From: a virus
Lineage: Duplodnaviria; Heunggongvirae; Uroviricota; Caudoviricetes
Direction: 5' to 3' (one strand)
Length of the DNA: 44,464 nucleotides
IMG/VR virus record: IMGVR_UViG_2571042862_000006
Location: 1-44,464 of that record
In this document: in pieces, positions 2,783-5,182 of the stretch
Position numbering within the stretch: the stretch's first letter is position 1
Layout of the letters: every line of letters starts with the position of its first letter
The notes under the pieces: model-generated
The model's database searches: none
Told to the model about the DNA's origin: nothing
Seen by the model: the letters and a program-made list of their open reading frames with translations, nothing else
Program-made: the position numbers and the translations under genes

Positions 2783-5182
2783 TTATTTTAGTATCCATCC
2801 GGTATTTCCTGTTCCTGTTTTTTTTTGATACCAATCACCATTATAATCAATGTACATTGACCCCTGAGGTGCGGTCACAACACCCTCAGGTGAACCGGAG
2901 CCTCTATAAATTCCAAAGAGAGTTGTACCTCTTACTTTCTCGTATGCAAACAACAAACCATCTGAAGCCCTTCTGATACGCAACGGTTCGTGCTCTGAGT
3001 CCGATGCAAATGTAGTGGTGCCGTTTGAATCTGTTTCCCTGGAAAAACTTCCATCTGTTCTTGTTCCTTCAATGATCGAATTTGGGTAGTTTGGATCATC
3101 AGATGAATGTAACCTAATATAGGAACTATTTGATGCTGATACCCCCCTACCCCTTAAAATCAATCCCTTAAATGATGACGTAAATAGTGCCTGGATTGAG
3201 CCATAAACAGTGTTATCACTACCGTTTTGCTGATCGTATATTCTTAGTCTTGAGCTATTATCATACATAATAGCGTTGAAGTACTCACCAAGACGTTCGC
3301 TAAATGCAACAATATTAAAAGCATTGCGCCATCTAAATGATATATTTCGCCCGCTTTCTCCGGCATCTACACCTGCATTACTTGAAGCATTGGTTATGCC
3401 AGAATTAAGGTTCTGCTCATCGTTGTTACCAGTCGCTGGTCGTATAGAGTAAATTGTCTTTTTCTCAAGAGAATAGCTACTTCCCCATCCATAATCTGTA
3501 TCAGGACTCCAGTCTCCAGAATTTGCATCCTTGGTTGTTTCCACCCAATAAGAGCCATTTGATGGAGGAACACCAATTATTCCAGAAGTCTCAATAGATG
3601 ATGCAGCCCATCTTCTTCCACGCCAGTTTACAATATTAGCTCCTGCCCTCCATGTTTCTATGCAGCTTATAATTATTTCTTCGCCACGAATAGTTAAACC
3701 TTCCGGCTCGAATCTGGCTGGATTCCCAAGAGTTGGATGGTTAAGCAACCCATCGCGCCCATATTGCGACCTTGCATCATCGATATCTAATTTTCTTAGT
3801 AAATTACCTGTTAAATCATATGTAAAGATATGATGCTTTCCAAAAGCATTAGTGCCTCCCTTAAGTATATGTATATATCTTCCATCAGACGCAATACCTT
3901 GTACAGAGTAAGCGCCTTCAGAAGGTGAGTCGCTCATTTCCCAAACAAACATGGGGTTTGCTAATGTTTTATCTTCAAGTTTATCAATTGATATTTTATC
4001 GTATATAAATACAGTTCGTTTAGCGGCATCACTCTTTGGTGTATTAACCATTATTAAAAGACGACCGTCAGAAGAAATGGCAATTCCTGCACGATTGTAA
4101 TCTTGAAATGGGTGACCGCTACCAGTAATCCCCCATACATTATAACTTTTTACGTCAGACTGAGTTGTTCCTGCCCCTCGCCAAGTTATTTTACTAAACC
4201 CTTTGCCTGCAGACTCCCCATCTTCACCTGAATTGGTTACACTTGATGTATATAAATATACTTGACCATTCTCCACCATGGCAGAAAGATCAAATCCGTG
4301 CCCAAGGTTTAATTCTGGAGAATACGCAACATGGTTTACTACCCTTCCATCATCATAAAGATTAAACTCAACAATACGAACTCTTTCTTTATCCGACCAG
4401 GTTGGCCCAACAGGCCGTTGTGTGACAAATAGTTTTTCAATGCCATTAACACGGCAATATGCGATCCCCTGTAACGCATTTCTGGCATTAGGATAAATTT
4501 CTGTGTTTGTTTCTCCCTGAAAACCAAAAAAAGGTTCCATCATTTTTCTCTGCGCAAGTTTGTCAGTTTCAAGTAGACGAGAAACGGAAATAAGAGAGCC
4601 ATTATCTGCAACAATCCTCCCAATACCTCGAGCAGAAGATACATCAACTTCGAGAGTATTTACTGCAAAATCGCCATCAGGAACAAACATTCTATAGCCT
4701 GCGTTAGAGAATGCCTCAGTAGCGTCAGTTATTCCATCACTGATAGCCCCCCAACCGCGAACATCTTTGTCATCACGCCATCGTGCAATCTGCAATTCGG
4801 GATATTTTTTAGCACCATCCGGGTCTTCTAACTGCTGCCGTAGCTGATCCGGGTCATACTTCAGCACATTAGGGAAATAGAACTGCTGAGTGCCATATGC
4901 ATCATATACAGCCATAGAATGGCCTTGAACAGTTACGAATTTGGCAATCTGCCCGTTATATACCGGATATCCAGCAGCGTTAATGATGATTGGCTGCGAA
5001 ACAGGAACATGAGAGCCGTCTTCGTTCTCTACATAAACCTGAATCTGGTTTTCTGGACTTACCGGGTCAGTGTCAATTTTTCCGATATAAATTTTGCCGT
5101 TGGCTACTGCTTTAAAAGAACGCGCCATAGTGAAGAGTTGCGAAGGCATACTCACTACAACATTGGCTGTAATGTCTGTCAT
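2783..5182 (-). CDS. Tailspike protein: P22 gp9-like N-terminal head-binding domain plus divergent receptor-binding domain
   Basis: 799 aa; first ~115 residues ([11 protein letters not shown]...[12 protein letters not shown]...VLKYDPDQ) match the P22 tailspike N-terminal domain; the remainder is unrelated to the P22 endorhamnosidase and rich in Gly/Ser/Asp/Asn repeats. Confidence 0.85.

Follow-up and report, generated by a model that had tools for sequence, protein, structure and literature searches.

We have analyzed the tailspike gene of a 44,464-nucleotide stretch of viral DNA (IMG/VR record IMGVR_UViG_2571042862_000006, positions 1 to 44,464; this whole stretch is referred to below as the window). 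The gene product is the tailspike of a P22/Sf6-like temperate podovirus (Lederbergvirus). It combines a P22-type head-binding domain with a receptor-binding domain (RBD) that, on the evidence of a structure model, is a five-bladed beta-propeller of the phi11 Gp45 / GA-1 gp12 family, and on balance we favour a K24-type capsule of Escherichia coli as the receptor of this propeller spike. The fold and the likely receptor are what is new here, since the sequence of the tailspike has already been deposited. A DNA similarity search showed that the tailspike of Escherichia phage vB_EcoP-683R2 (683R2 below) is identical to the protein along its whole length (100%) and that the tailspike of phage Gally is 97.6% identical to it; both phages are classified as Lederbergvirus. 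Database copies carry the names 'tailspike' or 'head-binding domain-containing protein', and phrog_16355, a family of unknown function, matches the protein from end to end. The gene occupies the canonical tailspike slot of a P22-like late operon, after the ejection-protein genes, and the window also encodes an Sf6-type tail-needle knob and gp10. The features discussed are collected in Table 1.

Residues 1-113 of the tailspike match the PF09008 Head_binding profile over its entire length (positions 1-113 of 113; E = 1.2e-66, 222.5 bits, cutoff 24). The same segment matches the solved head-binding domain of Sf6 gp14 (7sg7, E = 3e-64) and the P22 tailspike structures 2vky, 2xc1 and 1lkt (E = 1e-44 to 1e-50; 2.5e-44 for 1lkt), and residues 2-113 are 92% identical to Sf6 and 76% identical to P22. 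A preliminary description of this DNA, made from the sequence alone, had assigned residues 1 to about 115 to the P22 tailspike adaptor domain, and these matches bear it out. It had also held that the remainder is unlike the P22 endorhamnosidase; indeed, no match to the catalytic domains of P22, Sf6 or HK620 was found beyond residue ~118. The domain swap that it described, a P22-type anchor joined to an unrelated receptor-binding module, is seen from the other side in the homologues, where the same module stands behind other anchors: their N-terminal anchors are of the T7-fibre, tail-collar fibre, pectate-lyase-like, head-binding and GA-1 appendage types.

The edges of the N-terminal modules are nested within window positions 4562-5182, which encode the first 207 amino acids (aa). 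DNA likeness to HK620 and Sf6 covers nucleotides (nt) 1-339 of the tailspike gene and ends there, that to CUS-3 (86.7% identical) and 720R6 covers nt 1-449, and phrog_8280, a 'colanic acid degradation' tailspike family, is common to aa 1-206. Read from sequence, this nesting suggests several alternative recombination joints.

Residues 116-799 were modelled as a monomer with AlphaFold2 (AF2) on an alignment of homologues retrieved with residues 120-799 as the query. The model has a mean predicted local distance difference test score (pLDDT) of 82 and a predicted template-modelling score of 0.76. Residues 120-799 have only about 17 diverse relatives, with 27-62% identity. In the model, a small 'neck' domain made of helices and strands (fragment residues 13-92, corresponding to about aa 128-207; pLDDT 76-91) leads into the propeller, and this is followed by a connector, a beta-sandwich and a C-terminal tail. 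Apart from the anchor, the neck provides the sole PDB match found by sequence: residues 113-175 match the 'neck' of the tail spike 9vvr_A (E = 3e-13). The connector, in which pLDDT falls below 50 at fragment residues 491-497, is kept among the homologues, as exemplified by a 10-residue stretch and the motif EKKTIY.

When the model was compared with the PDB by Foldseek, all top matches were receptor-binding proteins (RBPs) of Staphylococcus aureus phages, and the predicted five-bladed propeller could be superposed on phi11 Gp45. The best match among the BFVD viral models was the neck appendage protein gp12 of Bacillus phage GA-1 (E = 4.8e-45, template-modelling score 0.60 over 567 columns), and here the relationship is also evident in sequence, tblastn aligning the RBD with GA-1 gene 12 at 26% identity over 76% of its length (E = 3e-47). 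A transitive link to the Pfam propeller family PF21311 (Phage_RBD_prop) is provided by a protein of the kps capsule locus, described below, which scores 57.8 bits on PF21311 and aligns with the RBD family by hhalign (probability 95.9%, E = 6e-9). The RBD family is small: 176 of 1.84 billion representative proteins match it at E <= 1e-3, nearly all of them 600-1,400 aa long. The preliminary description had looked to structure prediction for a depolymerase fold; prediction did yield a recognizable fold, but it is the phi11 Gp45 / GA-1 gp12 propeller and not a beta-helix. No Pfam or PDB sequence match beyond residue 175 points to a right-handed beta-helix domain, the model consisting of propeller and sandwich, and Pfam finds no glycoside-hydrolase, lyase or esterase family in the tailspike. 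Searches of the PDB with the RBD as a single sequence, as a family profile and with the C-terminal 198 aa returned only the S74 chaperone of sister proteins.

To identify conserved positions, eight divergent propellers were aligned: those of the tailspike, PGN829.1, GA-1 gp12, a Tetragenococcus phage fibre, the Pollock spike, two capsule-locus proteins and phi11 Gp45. Invariant in this alignment, in tailspike numbering, are Q238, G294-H295, Q428, D433, E492, E494 and G495, the last three forming an ExEG motif. Among 106 family cluster representatives E492 is again invariant, and Q238, H295, K327, T339, Q428 and E494 are kept in at least 90%. The equivalents in Gp45 are Q165, H209 (beside T211), Q330 and E385/E387, the Q, GHG and Q positions of the tailspike being aligned there. 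Gln165, Thr211 and Gln330 of Gp45 line a cavity proposed to hold the N-acetylglucosamine of wall teichoic acid, and phi11-type proteins have been described as binders without enzymatic activity (PMC4901313). In our model the conserved residues lie on or beside the first strand of blades 1, 2, 4 and 5, and we infer that Q238, H295, K327, Q428, D433, E492 and E494 ring one face of the propeller axis as a single pocket.

The C-terminal end distinguishes two groups of homologues. In the alignment of 16 members, seven sequences end in a GSPEG...GNTGW motif, as the tailspike does, and eight run on into Peptidase_S74, which in these sister proteins replaces the last ~60 residues. The tail thus stands where sister proteins carry a self-cleaving S74 chaperone. 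The preliminary description had proposed a check for a C-terminal autoproteolytic chaperone domain; such a domain is absent here, the Pfam scan giving no match to Peptidase_S74 (PF13884) at E <= 1. Its Gly/Ser/Thr-rich end holds up in part: the enrichment is real, if mild (G+S+T 36% in the last 100 residues versus 26% overall), but similar peaks occur inside the propeller, and from its sequence the end is better described as a conserved motif. The last ~50 aa (window 2786-2935; GSPEG..GS.Y.D...Y.K..G.GNTGW) share 40-50% identity with tail proteins of more than 180 Vibrio phages and of Klebsiella, Acinetobacter and Escherichia (IME11, EK8) phages whose upstream domains are unrelated, and this motif may act as a portable cap for trimerisation or folding that replaces the S74 chaperone.

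The receptor was approached through the genomes that carry the RBD. Among 5,426 complete E. coli genomes (RefSeq), RBD DNA is present in 44, in the form of two alleles (>= 99.8% and ~98.5% identity). Carriers of serogroup O83 include LF82, NRG857C and A0 34/86; those of O102 include strain 2779 and many genomes that resemble sequence type 405 (ST405-like). Common to the O83 and O102 carriers is a group-2 kps locus, first found in strain 2779, whose region 2 encodes a cytidylyltransferase, a GT29-family transferase, a CDP-glycerol glycerophosphotransferase, a tetratricopeptide repeat (TPR) protein and, as its fifth gene product, the propeller protein mentioned above. The core of this region 2 occurs in only 61 of the 5,426 genomes, and at least 40 of the 44 RBD genomes are among them (Fisher p = 6e-81); the matches listed comprise 60 of these 61 genomes and, for O102, 60 of 106. 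Because the RBD occurs almost only in strains with this locus, the corresponding capsule is the likely receptor. We call the locus K24-type: LF82 has it, as does A0 34/86 (97.3% identity), a strain whose serotype is given as O83:K24:H31 in PMC2481252. K24 contains alpha-Kdop (PMC12887879), and from the gene content it would be a teichoic-acid-like polymer of Kdo (3-deoxy-D-manno-octulosonate) and glycerol phosphate. The preliminary description held that the target glycan cannot be told from sequence. This is true of the window alone, but the lysogen genomes narrow the target to the K24-type locus and away from the O antigen. In PMC9928086, Gally is reported to lysogenise LF82 deltaGally and to form no plaques on C, TD2158 or MG1655 wbbL+, data that fit a capsule requirement. 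In the searched text of two Gally papers no Gally receptor is named, and the literature searched for 683R2 and Gally, for propeller tailspikes with five blades, for the ST405 capsule and for the K24 structure yielded no description of receptor or fold.

Sister lineages of the RBD were examined in the same genomes. The PGN829.1-type RBD (47% identity over 99% of the length) is present as a prophage head-binding spike in two genomes, PK5 and EC19, both of which carry a K24-type locus (2/2; chance probability ~1e-4). The P0017-type tailspike, which consists of a head-binding domain, propeller and S74 chaperone (L017:1479-4211), has an RBD 36% identical to the one described here, and this RBD is found in exactly five genomes. 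A second glycerol-phosphate region 2, encoding a CDP-glycerol glycerophosphotransferase, a 701-aa polymerase-like protein and a GT8 transferase (L019:9454-13892), is present at full length in exactly these five, a one-to-one match among the 5,426.

The product of the fifth region-2 gene is itself a relative of the tailspike propeller. It is 322 aa long, has an N-terminus resembling a signal peptide and bears the annotation 'phage baseplate protein'; besides being a significant member of PF21311, it keeps the motifs of the tailspike family. The ribitol-phosphate-type locus that is found in the WCHEC strains, and likewise in E. coli B, BL21 and C, contains a 97.7%-related copy. We know of no described function for this protein. 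There are thus three ties between the propeller family and polyol-phosphate polymers: through phages of Gram-positive hosts, through E. coli phages and through capsule loci. The capsule-locus homologue, which even E. coli B and BL21 possess, points to a step in capsule biology that has yet to be studied.

A mechanism can be proposed in which the head-binding domain docks a presumably trimeric spike on the tail hub, and the neck carries the propeller as receptor-binding module, with the beta-sandwich and the conserved tail after it. The receptor would most likely be the rare group-2 K24-type capsule, with its Kdo and glycerol phosphate and its CDP-glycerol machinery, and not the O antigen. The putative pocket formed by the family-wide conserved residues would recognise the polyol-phosphate repeat, and the variable surface around it would set the K type. 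Cleavage of the polymer would give the short-tailed virion access to the outer membrane, the presumed site of action of the Sf6-type needle knob.

Classically, the tailspikes of P22-like phages act as O-antigen enzymes, and at least 24 of the 44 carriers are O83 or O102, so that a spike specific for O102 and/or O83, like those of P22, Sf6 and HK620, had to be considered. This candidate was rejected after the O83 and O102 loci had been located and cross-tabulated with the RBD and the capsule locus. The two O loci are unrelated in gene content, and O type does not separate the RBD alleles: allele b is found in EC21, an O102 genome, and allele a in 19AR1724, which is O83. Inside either serogroup the tailspike gene goes with the capsule locus, being present in 7 of 7 O83 genomes with the locus versus 0 of 28 without (35 genomes), and in 14 of 22 versus 3 of 38 among the O102 genomes listed (60). 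A further 19 or more carriers are neither O83 nor among the listed O102 genomes, and all of them have a K24-type locus. Since the capsule link holds inside both O83 and O102, we consider the O antigen a highly improbable target. An indirect link deserves slightly more weight, although we still give it little credence: the locus could mark an ecology or a lineage, or permit lysogeny, the true receptor being, for example, the lipopolysaccharide core, enterobacterial common antigen or a porin. A number of observations do weigh against our interpretation, and several of these would suit an indirect link. Our choice of receptor is built on a correlation, the joint presence of prophage and capsule locus, and the genome set contains some clones repeatedly (ST405-like O102 strains, two entries for LF82 and three for strain 405). 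Among the matches listed, four carriers are without a K24-type locus and twenty genomes with the locus are without this RBD. Three of the four are related WCHEC strains with a ribitol-phosphate-type region 2, as would fit either a change of capsule after lysogeny or cross-recognition, and the fourth is WW2. The presence of glycerol phosphate in K24 is deduced from gene content. As for the fold, PF21311 scores 16.5 bits on the tailspike (E = 0.0067), below its gathering threshold of 23.7, and matches only 4 of the 16 aligned family members, in each case weakly; direct hhalign of the family with phi11 Gp45 is not significant (probability 3.6%), so the Gp45 link rests on fold, shared motifs and the transitive link. 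The clustering of conserved residues into a single pocket is deduced from blade positions and the phi11 description, and the description of the phi11, 80alpha and P68 RBPs as binders argues against catalysis. An indirect link is, however, difficult to reconcile with the recurrence of the association in three RBD lineages and two glycerol-phosphate loci, including the exact 5/5 among 5,426 genomes. The association also spans at least two serogroups (O83 and O102) and two attachment sites, the tRNA-Arg gene argW, where the same prophage is integrated in strain 2779, and torS/torT, the insertion site given for Gally in PMC9928086, and phages of Gram-positive hosts provide an independent tie between the RBD family and polyol-phosphate polymers.

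Given a K24-type capsule as the receptor, the inferred pocket might bind the polymer or also cleave it, and we lean slightly towards cleavage. The capsule-specific podoviruses that have been characterised are, to our knowledge, equipped with depolymerases, and teichoic acid is degraded by phi29 gp12, which corresponds in function to GA-1 gp12; both facts speak against a purely adhesive spike. So does the retention of the same polar residues across S. aureus, Bacillus, Tetragenococcus, E. coli and capsule-locus proteins that have different ligands, a pattern that one would sooner expect of a catalytic or metal site than of a pocket that sets specificity. A non-enzymatic, capsule-specific adhesin, which would reach the membrane by reversible binding or at capsule-poor regions, is the less probable but still a serious alternative. 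Among relatives of solved structure, the closest are receptor-binding proteins described only as binders, none of the enzyme families sought with Pfam was found, and Gally forms no plaques or halos on its cured host in the account given in PMC9928086. At the other extreme, and rather unlikely in our opinion, the conserved site could be catalytic, perhaps with a metal requirement, cutting polyol-phosphodiester bonds or the ketosidic bonds next to them, and could define a new class of capsule depolymerase, a 'teichoicase' on a five-bladed propeller. If this were true, the RBPs of the phi11/80alpha/P68 type and GA-1 gp12, now treated as lectins, would by homology also be enzymes, and the secreted propeller of the E. 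coli polyol-phosphate capsule loci would likewise be an enzyme acting on teichoic-acid-like polymers.

Table 1. Features of the tailspike gene, its surroundings in the window and the related capsule-locus genes. Positions are those of the window unless a strain is named.
Feature	Residues	Position	Strand	Evidence
Tailspike coding sequence	799 aa + stop codon	2783..5182	-	Open reading frame (ORF) list, single ATG-started ORF
P22/Sf6-type head-binding (particle anchor) domain	1-113	4844..5182	-	PF09008, PDB matches, identity
Linker and small alpha/beta 'neck' domain	114-207	4562..4843	-	AF2, 9vvr_A, phrog_8280, CUS-3 DNA
Predicted five-bladed beta-propeller, putative receptor-binding 'platform'	208-530	3593..4561	-	AF2, five four-stranded repeats
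Connector, beta-hairpins and low-confidence loop	531-620	3323..3592	-	AF2, fragment residues 413-505
Predicted C-terminal beta-sandwich (tower-like)	621-740	2963..3322	-	AF2 model
C-terminal tail with GSPEG...GNTGW motif	741-799	2786..2962	-	Monomer pLDDT 28-54
Upstream neighbour, ejection (gp16-like) protein		5347..7344	-	ORF list; DNA transfer / injection protein in 683R2 and Gally
Two-gene cassette, GC 34-37%		1275..2663	both	GC profile, Pfam
SGNH/GDSL esterase		1863/2127..2663	+	PF13472, E 4.5e-21
DUF1796 protein		1275..1967	-	PF08795, E 8e-16
Capsule-locus propeller gene		strain 2779 L010:22318-23286; WCHEC4533 L011:8578-9537; E. coli B REL606 L012:6578-7537		PF21311

The tailspike gene is separated from a P4-type integrase gene by the low-GC cassette of SGNH esterase and DUF1796 genes listed in Table 1. 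The same cassette is present in 683R2 and strain 2779 and absent from Gally. The esterase was examined from its possible start codons for a secretion signal and none was established. In CUS-3 we take the corresponding slot between tailspike and integrase to be occupied by neuO, a polysaccharide-modifying moron; by analogy, the SGNH/DUF1796 pair may be receptor-modifying morons that alter the acetylation of the receptor polymer. A hexapeptide-repeat acetyltransferase-like gene adjoins the P0017-type tailspike (L017:4367-5077), in a slot equivalent to that of the cassette.

The prophage of strain 2779, otherwise identical, has an IS2 insertion after the gp10 gene (L005:4343-5571), and the window copy is without IS2. 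A suspected insertion sequence in the window itself was rejected, the ORFs at 9347-12173 being DUF2824, the Sf6-type needle knob and gp10. ARAGORN called a tRNA-Ala (cgc) at window positions 30363-30445, inside the ORF of a CI-type repressor (30165-30812; HTH and Peptidase_S24 domains); this call is probably a false positive. A scan for promoters and terminators near the tailspike gene gave no informative signal. Among the bacterial hosts, closely related O102 (ST405-like) genomes have either a K24-type or a ribitol-phosphate-type kps region 2 (WCHEC4533, L011:4086-8543, versus strain 2779, L010), and this difference between related genomes indicates capsule switching within the ST405-like clone. 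In LF82 (NC_011993.1; L004:36197-37431) the O83 wzy gene for the O-antigen polymerase is annotated as frameshifted. If the frameshift is real, LF82 would carry no more than a single O unit on each core, and this could bear on how phages gain access to the surface.

These results provide a testable receptor for Gally, a prophage of the Crohn's-associated strain LF82, and for related prophages in the high-risk ST405 clone and in A0 34/86, a probiotic strain. K-type-specific reagents or engineering parts could be made from the RBD lineages, for capsule typing or for phages or tailocins retargeted to ST405.

Compared with known systems, the tailspike shares its anchor domain, its genomic slot and a primary receptor-binding role with P22 gp9, Sf6 gp14 and HK620 gp9. 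These are right-handed beta-helix O-antigen endoglycosidases, however, and neither the sequence nor the model shows such a domain here. The closest parallel as a system is the tailspike of CUS-3, a K1-specific P22-like prophage of E. coli RS218, which also joins a P22-type anchor to a propeller-containing module that is not a beta-helix, and whose prophage distribution also follows a group-2 capsule type. The CUS-3 protein has a sialidase-type endosialidase and an S74 chaperone (PF12217, PF12218, PF12195 and PF13884 in related matches), whereas the present tailspike has a propeller of the phi11/GA-1 type, no S74 domain and, by our interpretation, a K24-type capsule as receptor, enzyme activity being only conjectured.

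The same RBD, at 47% identity, is found in the tail fibre of PGN829.1 (Gamaleyavirus; AXY82583) and its prophage copies in PK5 and EC19, all of them uncharacterised; PGN829.1 differs in its anchor, in being a virulent N4-like phage and in 53% sequence divergence. GA-1 gp12 is likewise the peripheral spike of a podovirus and, among phage proteins that have long borne a name, is the only one whose sequence clearly resembles the RBD. It differs in its phi29-type anchor and in ending with an S74 chaperone (PDB 3gud, found via the family profile), and we know of no described function for its central domain. Closest in fold, together with GA-1 gp12, are phi11 Gp45 and its relatives (the 80alpha RBP and the P68 and NF5 tail fibres; PF21311), at ~15% identity. 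Gp45 is anchored by a coiled-coil stem in a siphovirus baseplate, and its host is Gram-positive with wall teichoic acid, as opposed to a Gram-negative one with a capsule. P22-like coliphages can thus carry an RBD from a family that staphylococcal and Bacillus phages direct at teichoic acids, which suggests that one ancient polyol-phosphate recognition module is shared across the Gram divide.

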